Shown one piece after another: positions 25,151-39,543 of a stretch of 64,000 bases of DNA. The notes under the pieces are model-generated. The model was not told the origin of the DNA, did not search any database, and saw only the letters and a program-made list of their open reading frames with translations. The position numbers and the translations under genes are program-made. Within the stretch, counting starts at the first letter, position 1. Each line of letters opens with the position of its first letter. The DNA comes from an uncultured bacterium (GTDB lineage: Bacteria; Babelota; Babeliae; Babelales; Babelaceae). The stretch is from NCBI GenBank assembly GCA_963848965.1, contig CAWKFG010000002.1, forward strand, positions 8,022 to 72,021. The letters run 5' to 3'.

Positions 25151-27745
25151 ATGGATTCACTGAAAGTTCGACAAAAATTTTTTCACTATTTTACTGAGCG
25201 AGGACACACGCAGGTACCAAGCTCTTCACTTATACCTGCACAAGACCCAACGTTGCTTTTTACTAATGCAGGAATGAATCAATTTAAAGATCTTTTTTTA
25301 GGCAAAGAGACACGCAGTTATAAACGAGCTGTCTCTATTCAAAAATGTATTCGTGCTGGCGGAAAGCATAATGACCTAGAAAATGTAGGGTTCACCAAAC
25401 GCCATCTCACATTCTTTGAAATGATGGGCAACTTCTCTTTTGGAGACTATTTTAAGCGCGAAGCAATACAGTACGCGTGGGAATTTCTTACCAAAGAGAT
25501 AGGATTACCTGCAGATAAACTTTATGCAAGTATTTACTATAAAGATGATGAAGCCTATACCATATGGCATAAGGAGATTGGTCTACCAGAAAACCGCATC
25601 GTACGACTTGGTGAACAAGATAACTTCTGGCAGATGGGTGATACCGGACCATGCGGTCCTTGTTCAGAAATTTATATCGATCGCGGTATAGGATATTCGT
25701 GTGAAGGAAAAGAATGTGCACCTGGCTGTTCTTGTGATAGATTCTTAGAGATCTGGAATCTCGTATTTATGCAATATGATAGACAATCAGATGGTACTGA
25801 TAAACCTCTCAAGCAAACGGGTGTTGATACTGGTATGGGTCTTGAACGGCTGTGTGCTATCATACAAGAGAAAGATTCCGTCTACGATACTGATCTTTTT
25901 GCTCCACTTATACAAGCAGTTGAGCAGCTTACGGGCATCATCTATTGCTCTGCATCTGGTGAAATACAAGCTGCATTTCGAGTTCTTGCAGATCATATTC
26001 GTTCATCTGCTTTTGCTATTGCCGATGGCTGTACCCCTTCAAATGAAGGACGCGGCTATGTGCTCAGAAAGATTATAAGAAGAGCTGCGCTCTTTGCTCA
26101 AAAACTTCATAAAAAGAATATATTTCCTGATTTAGCACCAGCTCTCATTAAAGCAATGAGCCCTCTATACCCCGAGCTTCAAACACATGCGATGGTGATT
26201 TCTTCTATTCTTAAAAGTGAAGTAGAAAAATTCTCTGCAAACCTTATTAATGGACAACAGATTCTTGCAAAATATTTTGAAGAAAATCACACATCAAAAA
26301 CGATAGCAGGAGCTCAGGCATTTAAACTTTATGATACGTATGGTTTTCCTCTTGAACTCACAAAAGTTATTGCCTATGAGCATGGGTTTACCGTTGATAC
26401 AGAGGGATTTGAAGATCTTATGGAACAGCAACGGATACAATCTGGTAAAAAGCAAGCACAAGAAGAATGCTCTCTTGACGAGTCCGTATATACACACTTT
26501 ACGGGATACGATGAACATGTTACACAGACTGTTATCACTGCACTTCTTGTCAATAATAAGCCTATCGATAAAGTGGAACCTGGTACGCTTGTCTCTGTTG
26601 TCACAGAAAAGTCTCCCTTCTATGTTGAATGTGGTGGACAAATAAGTGACCAAGGATTTATAAAAGTTCATGATAAAGAAGCAAAACTCTTAGGCCTTAA
26701 AAAGATTCATAAAGCAATTGCAGCTGACATTGAAGCACCAAGCACATTGCATGTAGGTGATACCGCTACGTTAGTAGTTGACAGTCCTAGCCGTATCAAT
26801 ACTATGAAAAACCACACAGCAACACACCTATTACAGGCTGCTTTAATTGCTATTGTTGGCAAAGGAGTAAAGCAATCAGGATCTGTTGTTACACCTGATT
26901 ATCTACGATTTGACTTTACATACCATGAAAATTTAACCCCTGAGCAAATAACCTCTATTGAGAACCTTGTTAATGATAAAATAATGCACAATATCCCAGT
27001 GCGAGTAACAGAGACAACGCTCAAAGACGCTCAAGAGCGTGGTGTTATCGCATTCTTTGGTGAAAAGTATAATCCTGAAAAAGTTCGTGTCGTTGAAGTT
27101 CCTAGTTTTTCAGCAGAGCTTTGCGGTGGTACCCATGTACGAGCTACCGGTGATATAGGTGCTTTTAAAATTACCGAGGTATCTTCTCTTTCAGCAGGTA
27201 ACAGAAGAATTGTTGCACTTACAGGACCTGGTGCTCTTGCACTGTTCCAGCAAACATTCAGTTTAGCCAAAAGCCTTAGTCAAGAATTTAAAGTACCTCT
27301 TGAGAGCGTGGCTGACGCTGTACAAAAACAGAAAGAGCAGCTAAAATCTGCAAAAACCTATGCAAGAGATCTTAAAAAGCAACTGTATAAACTTCAAATG
27401 CCTGAGTGGGCTACCAAAATTCAAAACTTTGGCTCAGTTCCCTTTCTTTATCTAGCAATTAAAGATGCATCTGCAGAAGATCTTAAAGAGATTGCACAAG
27501 AATTTATGCGAGTACAACCGGGACTCTATTTCTTAGTTGGCCAAGAAGGAGCACGAGTACATTATTTTGCATCGCTTGCTCCGCAGCTTGCACAAAAAGT
27601 AAATCTTCAAGCATTTAATACCTGGCTCAAAGAGCATGGTCTACGAGGAGGAGTAAGCGGAACAACTCTTCAGGGAGGTGCACCCACTTTAGATCTTGAT
27701 CTTGAATATGGTATTAAAAAATGGTTACATGATCATATACAATAA
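25151..27745 (+). CDS. alaS: Alanine--tRNA ligase
   Basis: DPTLLFTNAGM, FEMMGNFSFGDYFK, DTGMGLER, HTATHLL, ELCGGTH. Confidence 0.98.
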   Translation: MDSLKVRQKFFHYFTERGHTQVPSSSLIPAQDPTLLFTNAGMNQFKDLFLGKETRSYKRAVSIQKCIRAGGKHNDLENVGFTKRHLTFFEMMGNFSFGDYFKREAIQYAWEFLTKEIGLPADKLYASIYYKDDEAYTIWHKEIGLPENRIVRLGEQDNFWQMGDTGPCGPCSEIYIDRGIGYSCEGKECAPGCSCDRFLEIWNLVFMQYDRQSDGTDKPLKQTGVDTGMGLERLCAIIQEKDSVYDTDLFAPLIQAVEQLTGIIYCSASGEIQAAFRVLADHIRSSAFAIADGCTPSNEGRGYVLRKIIRRAALFAQKLHKKNIFPDLAPALIKAMSPLYPELQTHAMVISSILKSEVEKFSANLINGQQILAKYFEENHTSKTIAGAQAFKLYDTYGFPLELTKVIAYEHGFTVDTEGFEDLMEQQRIQSGKKQAQEECSLDESVYTHFTGYDEHVTQTVITALLVNNKPIDKVEPGTLVSVVTEKSPFYVECGGQISDQGFIKVHDKEAKLLGLKKIHKAIAADIEAPSTLHVGDTATLVVDSPSRINTMKNHTATHLLQAALIAIVGKGVKQSGSVVTPDYLRFDFTYHENLTPEQITSIENLVNDKIMHNIPVRVTETTLKDAQERGVIAFFGEKYNPEKVRVVEVPSFSAELCGGTHVRATGDIGAFKITEVSSLSAGNRRIVALTGPGALALFQQTFSLAKSLSQEFKVPLESVADAVQKQKEQLKSAKTYARDLKKQLYKLQMPEWATKIQNFGSVPFLYLAIKDASAEDLKEIAQEFMRVQPGLYFLVGQEGARVHYFASLAPQLAQKVNLQAFNTWLKEHGLRGGVSGTTLQGGAPTLDLDLEYGIKKWLHDHIQ

Positions 27746-32660: not shown

Positions 32661-32972
32661 TCATTTTTTGCTCTTAAAAATTTCTTGGGGCTCTTTTTCA
32701 AGAGTTGCGAGAAGATGCGCTAAGCTAGATAAAGTTAAGTTAGCTTCACCACGTCTAATCTTAGCAACTTGGACTGGAGTTGAATCTAACCGTCTTACAA
32801 GTTCATTAAAGCCAATATTATGCTTACTCATATAATCTTCCATAGCAGATGAGATTGATTCTTGTAATAAGGACAAGAATCTAATTTCACGTTCTGCTCG
32901 TTCTTCAATTTCAGCAATTTCATTTTTGCTTAATCTCTTTTCAAGATATTCTTGAAAACTTTTTGTTTTCAT
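32661..32972 (-). CDS. HigA-like XRE HTH antitoxin
   Basis: ELVRRLDSTPVQVAKIRRGEANLTLSSL; downstream of the toxin. Confidence 0.82.
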   Translation of the reverse strand: MKTKSFQEYLEKRLSKNEIAEIEERAEREIRFLSLLQESISSAMEDYMSKHNIGFNELVRRLDSTPVQVAKIRRGEANLTLSSLAHLLATLEKEPQEIFKSKK

Positions 32973-32984
32973 AAATGTCCTTTT

Positions 32985-33305
32985 CTATAACTGTGAAAGC
33001 CGCTTACGTGCAATCCTTATATCCCTTTCTTGTTCTGATTTATTACCTGCAGCAAGCAAAATAATTATATCACCACCAGAAAATGAATAATAAATTCTAT
33101 AACCATACTTAAGTTCTCGTAATTCAAAAAGACCCTTCTTTAAAGGTCTACTATGTGGAAGTTTTAACGCATTGCCAGATTTTTCCAAGATTTTTATTAC
33201 AGCAGCAACCTCCTTAAACTGTTCATCCGTTAGCGAGTTAAACCATTTTTCAATAGGATTGTTCTTTTTTGCCCCATCCCAGTACTCAATTTTCCATCTC
33301 TTCAT
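32985..33305 (-). CDS. RelE/HigB (Gp49-like) toxin
   Basis: PHSRPLKKGLFELRE...YRIYY...IILLAAG.K..Q.RDI..AR. Confidence 0.88.
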   Translation of the reverse strand: MKRWKIEYWDGAKKNNPIEKWFNSLTDEQFKEVAAVIKILEKSGNALKLPHSRPLKKGLFELRELKYGYRIYYSFSGGDIIILLAAGNKSEQERDIRIARKRLSQL

Positions 33306-33379: not shown

Positions 33380-33503
33380 CTCATCCTTTTAAAACGTTTG
33401 AGTTTTATGAAAATGTTTGGAACGGAAAAGAATTGAAAAAGTGTGATAGCTAAAGTTTAAGAAAATCTATGAAAGGAGAAAAAGAAACATATAAAAAAAT
33501 TTA

Positions 33504-33868
33504 GGAGGCGCCTGAATTACAAACTCATCTTGCCGAACCACCGTACTTAAACCACTCCAAGTATAGTCTTTGTGCTTGCACTCTAGTGTAGTCGCAAAGA
33601 CTCGATTCATACTAGAGACTAGGTTTATGATCCCTCAAGTTATACACCTAAAAATTCACTTGAGGTCCTCTTGATACCTTATGAGCATACAGGCCAAGAG
33701 AATGCCTTCGAGCTCATAAGTGCAGCGACCGCTTTGTGCCGATGCCCGTGGAGTCACAGCTTCCACGCGTTACTTGACCCATGTATTACGAGCGCAGGGG
33801 TCATCTTACTCGACTTGCGTTTTAAGTATGCGCGGCAGCCTTAAGCCCTATGGCTTATGAGCGCCTCC
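33504..33868 (-). ncRNA. Divergent tmRNA paralog (tmRNA-like RNA with remodelled tRNA-like and mRNA-like domains)
   Basis: Closing stem GGAGGCGC/GCGCCUCC, helix 2, pk1 (CGAG/CUCG plus UGACCC/GGGUCA) and three tandem H-type pseudoknots; local similarity to the adjacent ssrA; 365 nt. Confidence 0.85.
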
Positions 33869-33913
33869 GCTTTTTTCTTTATATGTCAAAGACAAACTTA
33901 TCTTACTATTCTT

Positions 33914-33943
33914 ACTATAATTTATTTTAAATCAAATTGTCAA
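33914..33943 (-). promoter_or_regulatory. Promoter of the tmRNA-like RNA
   Basis: TTGACA-N18-TATAGT. Confidence 0.7.
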
Positions 33944-34101
33944 TTATTTTTTGAAAAAGAAAAAGAATTTGAAGAAACTATAAGAAAGAAATGAATTTTT
34001 AAGAAGTTTTTTGCATTGAGTTATCAATGCTTTTAGAATTTTTAACTAATCCTTGCTTTCAGCTACACCGGGTTACAGCATAGCTCCTTTAAGAGCGACC
34101 G

Positions 34102-34132
34102 TGTCCGCCGAAGCTCGCAGAGCGAAGGAGGA
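34102..34132. repeat. REP-like palindrome abutting the tmRNA 3' end
   Basis: gtccgccgaagctcgcagagcgaaggagga; its reverse complement closely matches 2297-2324. Confidence 0.75.
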
Positions 34133-34136
34133 AGGT

Positions 34137-34497
34137 TGGTGGAGGCGATGGGAATCGAACCCATGTCCGCACTACAATCGACTTAAAGCGCTACATGCTT
34201 AGTCTTTATCAATTCTTATAAAAATACTTAAAGACAGGTATTTTTTATAAGCTTGGTTTGTGTTCATTCAAGCTACAGACCAAGGTAACCTTGCTTGACG
34301 TCCTATAAAGGGTAATACGAGCCTTATCGATCTATAGGCATATCAATGAGACAAGTGTGTTGCCGCTATTAAGCGAAAGCAACAGCAGATTGTGCTGTAT
34401 TTGCACTTATTGTTTGACCATTTATTTTACGAGTACTCAGTCAAAGCTCGGCATGCTCTTCAAGCGTCTTATAACACGTCGAAGCCAGTACGCCCCC
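34137..34497 (-). ncRNA. ssrA: Transfer-messenger RNA; tag (A)ANTAQSAVAFA**
   Basis: 5' GGGGGCG...UUCGAC; 3' GGGUUCGAUUCCCAUCGCCUCCACCA; G3.U pair; UAAGU|GCA resume site. Confidence 0.97.
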
Positions 34498-34521
34498 GAA
34501 TCTTTCAAAGAATTCATTATA

Positions 34522-34550
34522 AGAATACCACAGTAAACTATCTTTGTCAA
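34522..34550 (-). promoter_or_regulatory. ssrA promoter
   Basis: TTGACA-N17-TATTCT with extended -10 TG. Confidence 0.75.
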
Positions 34551-34769
34551 TTTAAAACCCTGTACCAAAAGCACGTATTTTACCTTCTAACGCTCGAATA
34601 AGGTTTCCTATAAACTATTATTAATGCCTTATAGTCAAAGAAGGGCTCTTCATTAAAAAGACTCTTGACTGAATTATTCTTTTCAGTATACTAATATTTG
34701 AAATTAAATTGTTTTTATAGAACTTTCTTAGTTTTTTATTTATATTTATCATTATATAATGAGATTGTC

Positions 34770-36053
34770 ATGAAAAAATTACTTTTCTATGCCCTTATCT
34801 ATGCAGTTGGAAGCTGCTCTTTCTTTATGTATTCTATGGAAAACCCTTTTGATGACTTTAATGTAGACCTTATAGACTTTGGATACATTGATAACGTTGA
34901 TAATTTTTCTCTAGAAAGTTTTATTGACCTTAGTCCTTCAGAAGATCTTTCGCACAAAAAAAGGCCATATAATGCCGAAATTATTCAACAAGATGCTCTT
35001 GTTCAAGAAAGTCCTCAAAAAAAGTTAAAAATCGATGGTTCAGTTGCTCTTCTTTTAAAAGAATTACAAATGCTTGAAGAGAAGCATAGAGCAGTACGTG
35101 CAAATCTTATAGAAGAGGCAAAAAAGCTTGCATTACGATGCCAGGTTAACTTTGATTTGATACGTCCTTTAGATTTAAACTATAACAACCTTCCCTTATA
35201 CGAAGGCGTATCAAAACTTTCACAAGATCTTCTTTTAAAAAGTAAAGATGCTCCTTTTCTTTTAACATTACAACCAAAGGCTCGTGCAGAACTTCTTACT
35301 GCACTCACAGTAAAAACAGAGATTATTATAAAAGAAGTGACTGTTCTAGAAAAAGTCCTTGAATGTATTAGCACTGGATCTACATTCACACATACAGTTT
35401 ATCCGCAGCCCGAAACAGAGCTTCTTGATGTTATTCAGCTTGATCAGCTTCTTAAAGAATCATTACGGTGCTCTCGAGATTCAGAACGATCAAGAGACTC
35501 TTGGCTTACAAAATTGAAGTGGTTAATCTCTTTATATTCATTTAATATCTCTAAAAAATTTGCTCGCCAATTAGGTGAAGAATCTCATAATCCATTACAC
35601 GAAGTGTTTCAAAAGACTCTCGGTAATGCACTTATTGTACATGCAAAACATCATAGCATTACTTATAAAGACTTTTGCACGCTTTTAAAATTTATTATGC
35701 AAGATAGTCCTTTAGCTGCACCATTTATTGCTCGTGTAGGAGAATTTTTAGCATCAATACATGCAACACACACGAAACTTGGACTTATTAAAAGTCTTAT
35801 TAGCCAAACGTTAAAAGCAAGCATTAATGCAGCTGAAACTAAAGAGGTATTTACCTGTGCTATTTGTTATGAAGCACTTTCAGTATCTTCTAAACAATCT
35901 CTTTCTCAAGATGATTTCCAAGGTATTGTTACTCCTGCCTGCGCTTGTCAAAATTATTACCATAAAGCCTGTCTTGAAAAATGGATAGCAAACGGCTGCC
36001 CTATTTGCAAACGAAAAGTTGGTATTCAACCTATTATTAATCCTCAATCATAG
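34770..36053 (+). CDS. Secreted protein with C-terminal RING finger (putative E3 ubiquitin ligase effector)
   Basis: Signal peptide; CAIC...CAC..YYHKAC...W...CPIC. Confidence 0.82.
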   Translation: MKKLLFYALIYAVGSCSFFMYSMENPFDDFNVDLIDFGYIDNVDNFSLESFIDLSPSEDLSHKKRPYNAEIIQQDALVQESPQKKLKIDGSVALLLKELQMLEEKHRAVRANLIEEAKKLALRCQVNFDLIRPLDLNYNNLPLYEGVSKLSQDLLLKSKDAPFLLTLQPKARAELLTALTVKTEIIIKEVTVLEKVLECISTGSTFTHTVYPQPETELLDVIQLDQLLKESLRCSRDSERSRDSWLTKLKWLISLYSFNISKKFARQLGEESHNPLHEVFQKTLGNALIVHAKHHSITYKDFCTLLKFIMQDSPLAAPFIARVGEFLASIHATHTKLGLIKSLISQTLKASINAAETKEVFTCAICYEALSVSSKQSLSQDDFQGIVTPACACQNYYHKACLEKWIANGCPICKRKVGIQPIINPQS

Positions 36054-39090: not shown

Positions 39091-39543
39091 CTAAAACTTT
39101 CCACGAAGTTCTCTGCGAGTTTCTCGTGCAATATCCCGTTCTCTAAGCTCTTCCTTCTTTGCATGAGCTTTTTTATGTTTGCATAATCCAAGCTCTACTT
39201 TAACTTTTCCTTTATCATTAAAATACAGCTTTAAAGGAACAAGTGTCACTCCTTTACGAGAGATATCTCCTACAATTCTCGTAAGCTCTCGTCGATGCAC
39301 TAAGAGTTTGCGAGTACGACGAGCTAGTTCTTCACTCTTAGAATAGGCATGAGAGTACGGTGGAATATAACAGTTAATGAGATTAAGCTCATTCTGATGA
39401 ATAGTAGCAAATGAACCAGGAAGTGAAACCTGGTTTGCTCGTAAAGACTTTACTTCATCGCCAGTAAGTACAATACCAGTTTCAATGCGGTCTAAAATTT
39501 CATAATCATGAAAAGCTTTTTTATTTTGAGCAATAATTTTCAT
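39091..39543 (-). CDS. smpB: SsrA-binding protein
   Basis: NKKAFHDYEI, GIVLTGDEVKSLR, RKLLVH, TLVPLKLY. Confidence 0.96.
   Translation of the reverse strand: MKIIAQNKKAFHDYEILDRIETGIVLTGDEVKSLRANQVSLPGSFATIHQNELNLINCYIPPYSHAYSKSEELARRTRKLLVHRRELTRIVGDISRKGVTLVPLKLYFNDKGKVKVELGLCKHKKAHAKKEELRERDIARETRRELRGKF

Follow-up and report, generated by a model that had tools for sequence, protein, structure and literature searches.

The 64,000-nucleotide stretch of DNA analysed here (the window) comes from contig CAWKFG010000002.1 of an uncultured bacterium of the Babelaceae (assembly GCA_963848965.1), whose genome, designated G000, belongs to genus g1 of family f1. ARAGORN and Rfam each reported a single transfer-messenger RNA (tmRNA) gene in the window, and both pointed to the same ssrA gene, which encodes the tag ANTAQSAVAFA according to ARAGORN. 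An earlier note on this DNA, made from the sequence alone, had proposed a second, tmRNA-like RNA in tandem with ssrA. We designated this candidate RNA X. The coordinates confirmed that X is 365 nt long and that it follows ssrA on the same strand after a gap of 268 nt. X is also the GC-richer block that the note described, with a GC content of 48.5% compared to 41.6% for ssrA, 31.3% for the spacer and 35.9% for the whole window. The description of X as free of open reading frames (ORFs) held for ORFs of at least 60 aa, but three shorter ones of 46-57 aa overlap X, none of which is conserved. The features of the locus, with the evidence for each, are as follows.

34137-34497, minus strand: genuine ssrA (tmRNA), the putative parent gene of X (ARAGORN; Rfam, 182.5 bits).
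33914-33943, minus strand: promoter-like site TTGACA-18-TATAGT for X (11 of 12 consensus positions).
33504-33868, minus strand: X, the whole tmRNA-derived structured RNA gene (Rfam tmRNA match, covariance model R1, orthologs).
33862-33868, minus strand: 5' strand of the closing stem P1, GGAGGCG, the acceptor-stem homolog, with A3 in place of the G3 of ssrA (pairs with 33504-33510).
33843-33856, minus strand: D-arm-like hairpin AAGCC/GGCUU, which replaces the D-loop of tmRNA (fold and helix location).
33813-33837, minus strand: 5' strands of helix 2 (P2a, P2b and P2c; pair with 33531-33562).
33775-33812, minus strand: pseudoknot 1 (PK1), CGAG/CUCG and UGACCC/GGGUCA (ortholog pairing).
33747-33767, minus strand: hairpin HA, CGUGGA/UCCACG, in the place of the tag reading frame (covariation).
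33722-33745, minus strand: hairpin HB, GCA.CGGC/GUCG.UGC, at the position of tmRNA helix 5 (ortholog pairing).
33668-33720, minus strand: PK2, CUUAUGAGC/GCUCAUAAG and CUCUUG/CAAGAG (ortholog pairing).
33620-33665, minus strand: PK3, CCUCAAGU/ACUUGAGG and UAGGU/ACCUA (covariation in stem 1).
33565-33617, minus strand: PK4, CUCUAGU/ACUAGAG and AGUCUUUG/CAAAGACU (covariation in stem 1).
33531-33562, minus strand: 3' strands of helix 2 (helix location and ortholog pairing).
33513-33527, minus strand: T-arm remnant hairpin UGAGUU/AAUUCA, without the T-loop consensus (ortholog pairing).
33504-33511, minus strand: 3' strand of P1, (G)CGCCUCC, with no CCA after it (flanking bases of the ten orthologs).

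The Rfam tmRNA model (RF00023) matched 33542-33830 on the minus strand at 38.0 bits (local E value 1.5e-13), covering model positions 33-332 of 374. This match was obtained in an E-value search of the 800 bases around X and stays below the gathering score of 47 bits, which is the weak or partial second hit that the earlier note anticipated. A strong match to another family, which the note had named as a refutation, was not found: no other Rfam family in the 800 bases around X did better than an E value of about 1, and Rfam 15 contains no family for X. The hits to Clostridium-PBP, CRISPR-DR50, SNORD67, JUMPstart and others in or near X had E values of at least 1.2 and were taken as chance. Our own covariance model R1, which was built from three X sequences, scored 383.5 bits on X of the window. 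X folded with a minimum free energy of -126.6 kcal/mol (z = -3.41); among 100 shuffles of this single sequence, one was equally stable.

All 16 helix strand pairs that the earlier note had quoted were located in the 365-nt sequence, namely the closing stem, the three segments of helix 2, PK1 and the three further pseudoknots, and the quoted alignment of X with ssrA across a junction was visible. The elements of X are ordered as acceptor stem, helix 2, PK1, a helix at the helix 5 position, PK2, PK3, PK4, helix 2, T hairpin and acceptor stem, which is the order of tmRNA. The canonical order of helix 2 and PK1 to PK4 is found in X, with the second stem of PK3 weakly supported. Aligned with each other, the acceptor ends read GGGGGCG...CGCCUCCACCA in ssrA and GGAGGCG...CGCCUCC in X, and the hairpin directly before the acceptor 3' strand of X occupies the place of the T arm. 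When applied to genuine ssrA genes of the order, model R1 aligned end to end (positions 1-362) with 27 of them, scoring 25-64 bits. As judged from sequence and predicted structure, X is a full-length homolog of tmRNA, ends included. The earlier statement that X has the full architecture of tmRNA stood for helix 2 and PK1 to PK4, but not for the two functional domains. Four features go beyond that note: the closing stem is homologous to the acceptor stem with G3 changed to A, a remnant of the T arm is present, CCA is missing, and two hairpins make up the tag region. One repeat within X was also observed: positions 7-15 of X (33854-33862, minus strand) repeat the 9-nt 3' strand of PK2 stem 1 in G000 only. 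The repeat could form an alternative pairing with the 5' strand of PK2, a pairing not conserved in the orthologs.

X was also found in relatives of G000, which gave ten orthologs in two genera. All statements on the presence of X refer to species-representative genomes of the order. A first blastn search found X in two relatives, in each case directly past ssrA. Among the 41 genomes of the family, R1 gave X-level matches (192-384 bits) in G000 and in nine of the ten genomes of genus g11, and laxer filters gave the same result. The tenth g11 genome is 67% complete and yielded no tmRNA match above the cut-off either; its X locus is probably unassembled. By blastn, X was present in 10 of 261 genomes of the order; these are the same ten carriers, and no X was found beyond g1 and g11 in that set. 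At all ten loci X lies 101-592 nt downstream, on the same strand, of an ARAGORN-confirmed ssrA that encodes a tag. In one carrier, G048, the ssrA gene (L014:977-1354, plus strand) lacks 2 nt at each of two sites of the tag frame when compared with that of G010, a close relative, and ARAGORN reads an atypical 30-aa tag in it that runs past the usual stop; either an assembly error or a true frameshift of the tag could account for this.

A search of 151 genomes of the order with R1 gave matches in 13, three of which were X carriers, while the other ten had one weak match each. Nine of the weak matches were ARAGORN-confirmed ssrA genes and the tenth was an element in a genome of g14, described below. 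With matches in 13 of 151 genomes, R1 detects only part of the genuine ssrA genes, and very divergent X-like RNAs may escape it. A gapped IUPAC pattern derived from the 3' part of X was too loose, since it matched at least 120 genome loci and at least 118 metagenome contig loci in unrelated organisms; an nhmmer profile of X recovered no real X from the loci fetched in this way, with a sole match at 17 bits (L263). A stricter pattern gave no match on viral contigs.

The main test of structural conservation used A7, a structure-blind MAFFT alignment of the ten X sequences, and 96 base pairs taken from the structure of X in the window, pseudoknot second stems included. Standard pairs were formed in 86.8% of the cells of A7, compared to 32-46% when the partners were slid by 1-3 columns, and 42 of the 96 pairs were changed on both sides. 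All five measures exceeded 500 of 500 shuffles. In A4, a model-fitted alignment that is biased towards structure, 91.7% of the cells were paired and 41 of 71 pairs carried double changes. P1 was 100% paired in all ten orthologs, with one double change from G-C to A-U, and a majority of the pairs of helix 2 covary. Stem 1 of PK1 is invariant, and stem 2 was 98% paired with double changes. In HA, 5 of 6 pairs were double-changed (A4), and HB was 100% paired in all ten orthologs. Both stems of PK2 were 100% paired, with double changes in 4 pairs of stem 1 and 2 pairs of stem 2. All 8 pairs of PK3 stem 1 covary; a stretch of 5-9 complementary nt that could form stem 2 was found in each of the ten sequences, individually weak against shuffles. 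All 7 pairs of PK4 stem 1 covary (A4), stem 2 was 94% paired, and the T hairpin was 98-100% paired. P2a/b, HA, PK3 stem 1 and PK4 stem 1 vary in sequence with compensation, and hardly any sequence variation was seen in P1, PK1 stem 1, HB, PK2 stem 1, PK4 stem 2 and the T hairpin. Mean pairwise identity was 77% for ssrA, 66% for X and 50% for the spacer. Because compensatory changes occur across ten orthologs, these results support selection on the structure of X, which is very probably neither a scar nor a decaying copy.

The two activities of a tmRNA, charging with alanine and tagging, appear to have been lost from X. The third pair of the acceptor stem is A3-U in all ten X copies, whereas all ten neighbouring ssrA genes have G3.U (GGGGGCG/CGCCUCC). 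The G3.U70 wobble is described as an identity element for alanyl-tRNA synthetase (AlaRS) that is conserved in all ssrA, and the wobble and the A-CCA end together as the keys to alanylation (PMC3968760). An encoded CCA follows X in none of the ten copies, compared to all 34 of the tRNA and tmRNA genes that ARAGORN found in G000, and the base next to X, at the discriminator position, varies (A in six copies, U in two, G in one and C in one). Because of the A3-U70 pair and the missing CCA, X is predicted to be non-chargeable, that is, an RNA that cannot be a substrate of AlaRS.

Retention of ssrA features was scored by counting, in X, the positions that are at least 90% conserved in the 27 ssrA genes. 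The D region of X retained 1 of 7 such positions and its T arm 9 of 16, compared to 13 of 15 in the acceptor stem, 11 of 11 in PK1 and 9 of 10 at the PK4/helix-2 junction. By eye, the orthologs have a new hairpin of differing sequence past the acceptor 5' strand. Between PK1 and PK2, two conserved hairpins are found instead of a tag frame. This stretch of X is 53-58 nt long, its length modulo 3 varies, and it has stops in all frames; no conserved peptide was found in it in three frames of the ten X copies. X is thus left without a tag reading frame because two stable hairpins replace the tag region. By these features X has no mRNA-like domain and just a disabled remnant of the tRNA-like one, and it is a tmRNA derivative that, on its sequence, no longer meets the definition of a tmRNA.

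Annotation programs gave a similar picture. ARAGORN made no standard tmRNA call on any of the ten X copies. At one of the ten loci it made a permuted call in which the 3' part of ssrA is joined to X, and none of the Rfam families of permuted tmRNA reached its gathering score at the X loci. One match to RF04321, at 28.6 bits against a gathering score of 47, spanned the ssrA/X junction of one locus and was taken as chance. When the nine other X copies were searched with the Rfam tmRNA model, eight had no match at an E value of 0.01 or below, and the ortholog in G049 (L015:1528-1835, plus strand) scored 57.6 bits, above the gathering score. RNAduplex predicted whole-length duplexes between X and ssrA, but these are expected from homologous sets of hairpins, and the prediction was set aside as uninformative.

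A maximum-likelihood tree was built from the ten X sequences, the g14 element and the 27 ssrA genes (358 columns). X formed one clade (support 97/87), in which G000 of genus g1 was the first branch and the g11 copies grouped together (87/78). The X clade lay inside a group of mostly family-f1 ssrA genes with weak support (92/85). This topology fits a single tandem duplication of ssrA before the split of g1 and g11, followed by vertical descent, in an ancestor of two, and possibly three, genera of one family. The earlier note had also claimed selection on structure and a paralog that is no longer a tmRNA, and both are borne out by the ten orthologs, their compensatory changes, the single nested clade and an identity that falls between those of ssrA and the spacer.

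The g14 element (L021:1501-1839, minus strand, in genome G013) is 339 nt long and scored 59 bits with R1. It was not called as a tmRNA by ARAGORN, had no Rfam match at an E value of 0.001 or below, and lies on a different contig from the real ssrA of its genome. Its predicted fold (z = -4.9) has a long closing helix, PK1 and compact PK2 to PK4, and lacks both acceptor and T stems. In the tree it grouped with X (100/98) on a long branch, and blastn found no relatives of it in the order. This single sequence may be a more derived member of the X family. Directly upstream of it (L021:1876-2104, minus strand) lies a promoter-like site, TTGACA-17-TACACT, and the next 190 nt or so, which are GC-richer, end in a terminator-like hairpin and have no Rfam match at an E value of 0.001 or below; this stretch may be another small RNA.

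Signals for separate expression were found at the X loci. By eye, a TTGAC(A/T) box and a TAnnnT-like hexamer at a similar distance occur upstream of X in all ten orthologs. With this spacing, the leader ahead of G1 is predicted to be roughly 30-40 nt long. Hairpin-plus-U terminators were seen by eye past X in four of the ten loci, and a U-run directly after P1 in three. Three metatranscriptomic runs and one DNA run were compared with 33450-34550 of the window. One RNA run contained a 200-nt contig that aligned to 33539-33738, wholly within X, with 15 differences (92.5% identity) at a depth of 11.7; the same run contained a 171-nt ssrA contig with 3 differences at a depth of 7.9. No contig in the three RNA runs covered the spacer or the flanks. 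Among the 14 differences listed for the X contig, the changes at X254 and X286 turn a C-G pair of PK4 stem 1 into A-U, which is compensatory, one creates a G.U pair, and the remainder mapped to loops or linkers. These results lend weak support to transcription of X in a close relative.

Taken together, we consider it very probable that X is a separate, expressed, vertically inherited and neofunctionalised tmRNA paralog that does not tag and that arose by tandem duplication of ssrA. X would be transcribed from its own promoter-like site, and the leader would be removed at G1 by RNase P. Bacterial RNase P accepts minihelices made of acceptor and T stems. The nearly invariant sequence of P1 and of the T hairpin would be explained by a tRNA-like stack of acceptor and T stems retained for RNase P, the enzyme that makes the 5' end of tmRNA (PMC3968760). 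X would then act as a stable, non-tagging mimic that occupies partners recognising the pseudoknot ring, PK1 and helix 2 of tmRNA, with the 30S subunit, S1 and RNase R-type factors as candidates, and it would thereby modulate or compete with trans-translation. These parts of X are favoured because of the retention pattern, in which PK1 and PK4 are kept and the D and T regions are largely lost. We regard such an occupancy of the partners of pseudoknot ring, PK1 and helix 2 as the likeliest mode of action, although at clearly less than an even chance. In a broader form, X may be the first neofunctionalised tmRNA, binding ribosomes or protein partners of tmRNA as a non-tagging regulator, either as an antagonist of trans-translation or as a ribosome-parking RNA in the host-dependent life cycle of these intracellular bacteria; this we put forward tentatively, at a little under an even chance.

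Several points weigh against this interpretation. The nearly invariant P1 and T hairpin could mean that a tRNA-type enzyme still acts on X, and CCA could still be added to X after processing. Since the ten X sequences are kin from two genera, the double changes counted are more numerous than the independent events behind them. The promoter and the terminators are predictions from matches to consensus sequences. The RNA evidence consists of one contig of a relative in one of three libraries, and RNA libraries may hold DNA; the other two RNA runs contained ssrA contigs and no X contig, and contigs show the presence of a sequence but not where an RNA ends. Finally, the data point to the ribosome, S1 or RNase R in no specific way.

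The explanation that survives best beside the one favoured here is that X does a job unrelated to trans-translation, the tmRNA fold being a convenient stable scaffold for some other protein or process. X has acquired conservation of its own where ssrA has none: 26 of 54 columns in HA/HB and 40 of 53 in PK2 are at least 90% conserved in X, compared to none in either region of ssrA. The divergent g14 relative, with neither linkage to ssrA nor acceptor and T stems, is also in keeping with such a job. However, the near-complete retention of PK1 and of the PK4/helix-2 junction suggests a partner or fold shared with tmRNA, and X adjoins ssrA at every one of the ten loci. An unrelated job is therefore unlikely in our estimate, although it deserves serious weight.

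The roles that the earlier note put forward were a decoy for SmpB, S1 or the ribosome, a hibernation RNA and a non-tagging rescue RNA. In the SmpB version, as an uncharged "anti-tmRNA", X would bind the single SmpB of the cell and throttle trans-translation. SmpB binds tmRNA at the region of the acceptor stem, T arm and helix 2a, as is known from structural work on the complex of the tRNA-like domain with SmpB. All three have a counterpart in X, in the form of an acceptor-like stem, a T-like hairpin and helix 2a, and a single-copy smpB gene lies 4.6 kb upstream on the same strand (39103-39534, minus strand). This proposal is weakened because the positions of the D-loop and T-loop that are conserved in ssrA have mostly been lost. 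The elbow of X is remodelled, the T-loop of the UUCGA type is gone and a hairpin is inserted past the acceptor strand, and the g14 relative lacks the entire tRNA-like part. A decoy for SmpB is accordingly judged improbable on the sequence of X.

Second ssrA-like sequences beside ssrA are usually pseudogenes or island fragments, as the tmRNA survey of Hudson, Lau & Williams 2014 (PMC4131195) describes them, and X has lost both activities of tmRNA, as a decaying pseudogene or a duplication or integration scar of ssrA might have. A pseudogene is recognised by the lack of constraint, but X is full length with both ends at all ten assembled loci across two genera, its helices carry compensatory changes with 86.8-91.7% of cells paired and 41-42 pairs compensated, and its identity exceeds that of the spacer. 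The promoter box is conserved, and neither an integrase nor a repeat structure was seen among the neighbours scanned. We find this explanation very improbable. To an even smaller extent, X could act in cis on the downstream gene, as its leader or as a regulatory element, given that the gene for a similar secreted protein of about 250 aa starts 4-70 nt past X on the same strand at five of the nine g11 loci; but the other five loci have different downstream genes and hairpin terminators intervene in four of the ten, which makes a cis-acting role extremely improbable. The reading of X as a further functional tmRNA that is charged and tags proteins, either on its own or as half of a two-piece molecule, merits practically no credence: the score of the G049 ortholog and the single permuted call speak for it, but the A3-U70 pair, the missing CCA and the variable discriminator are found throughout, no conserved frame or alanine-rich tag end is present, the permuted call has an atypical 31-aa "tag" and is absent from the other nine loci, and every carrier has an intact one-piece ssrA.

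The genes that follow X differ by carrier and include those for a toxin-antitoxin pair (G000), a secreted protein, OmpH, an ATPase and others. In the window, a Gp49/HigB-type toxin (106 aa) and an HTH_26 antitoxin (103 aa) are encoded 198 nt downstream of X (32661-33305, minus strand); among the ten carriers, G000 alone has this pair after X. An unknown ORF and a P-type ATPase gene lie further on. The protein at five of the nine g11 loci carries a signal peptide and is about 240-260 aa long (L012:1926-2666, L013:540-1322, L015:1874-2659, L018:725-1492 and L020:1881-2603), and the two members scanned (L012 and L013) gave no Pfam match. The alaS gene of G000 lies at 25163-26785 on the plus strand (Pfam domain match) and is the one full AlaRS gene in the genome; alaS, ssrA and the single smpB all fall inside about 14 kb, a stretch that also includes X. 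The possibility that X is served by a second AlaRS or SmpB was considered and rejected, as only one weak 18-bit AlaRS fragment was found besides the full gene, and only one SmpB. Adjoining ssrA is a 451-aa ORF (34698-36053, plus strand) whose C-terminus weakly resembles a RING finger (23 bits, less than the Pfam cut-offs require), and a eukaryote-like effector is one possible product.

Compared with known systems, X is closest to tmRNA itself (RF00023), to which it is homologous over its whole length, with the same order of elements, an acceptor-type stem of 7 bp and a position adjoining ssrA; PK1 and the PK4/helix-2 junction of X keep nearly all of the bases conserved in ssrA. Unlike tmRNA, X has A3-U70, a variable discriminator and an extra D-like hairpin, and it lacks CCA, the D- and T-loop consensus, a resume codon, a tag frame and a stop codon. 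X resembles the two-piece permuted tmRNAs (the alpha, beta and cyano tmRNA families of Rfam, and RF04321) in that the tmRNA gene has been remodelled in one lineage. Permuted tmRNAs remain chargeable and encode a tag; unlike them, X is not permuted. The reduced mitochondrial tmRNAs of jakobids and oomycetes are likewise tmRNA derivatives that have shed a part. Such organellar tmRNAs keep a chargeable tRNA-like domain and lose the pseudoknots or the tag. X is their mirror image, since it keeps the pseudoknots and helix 2 and has a disabled tRNA-like domain. 6S RNA is an RNA mimic that occupies a machine without being its substrate. The proposed mode of X would be analogous, a stable structured RNA that imitates a natural ligand, although 6S RNA has no relation to X in sequence or structure. 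With ssrA pseudogenes and island fragments X shares the presence of a second ssrA-like sequence near a working ssrA; the oomycete mitochondrial case is mentioned in the same survey, where the rejected duplicates are described as pseudogenes that miss one end or as island (3'-end) fragments (PMC4131195). Unlike these, X has both ends, covariation, a promoter box of its own, conservation across two genera and no integrase seen nearby.

Full-text literature searches, with subscription journals mostly outside their scope, returned no description of a conserved tmRNA paralog like X. To our knowledge, tmRNA has been treated as a single-copy, single-purpose RNA, and extra copies have been written off as pseudogenes or integration scars. 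X would be a duplicate tmRNA kept under structural selection after both tmRNA activities had been lost. For annotation this means that Rfam-based pipelines can call a second "tmRNA" in some carriers, as with the G049 ortholog, which is not to be read as a functional tmRNA. The pseudoknots of tmRNA were found to be replaceable in E. coli, and their role has been debated since (PMC3968760). In X, the pseudoknot ring, helix 2 and PK1 occur apart from charging and tagging, so that X may serve as a natural experiment on that part of the molecule alone. If X is indeed a non-tagging regulator, its acceptor-less relative in g14 would show that the pseudoknot ring alone can carry a new function.

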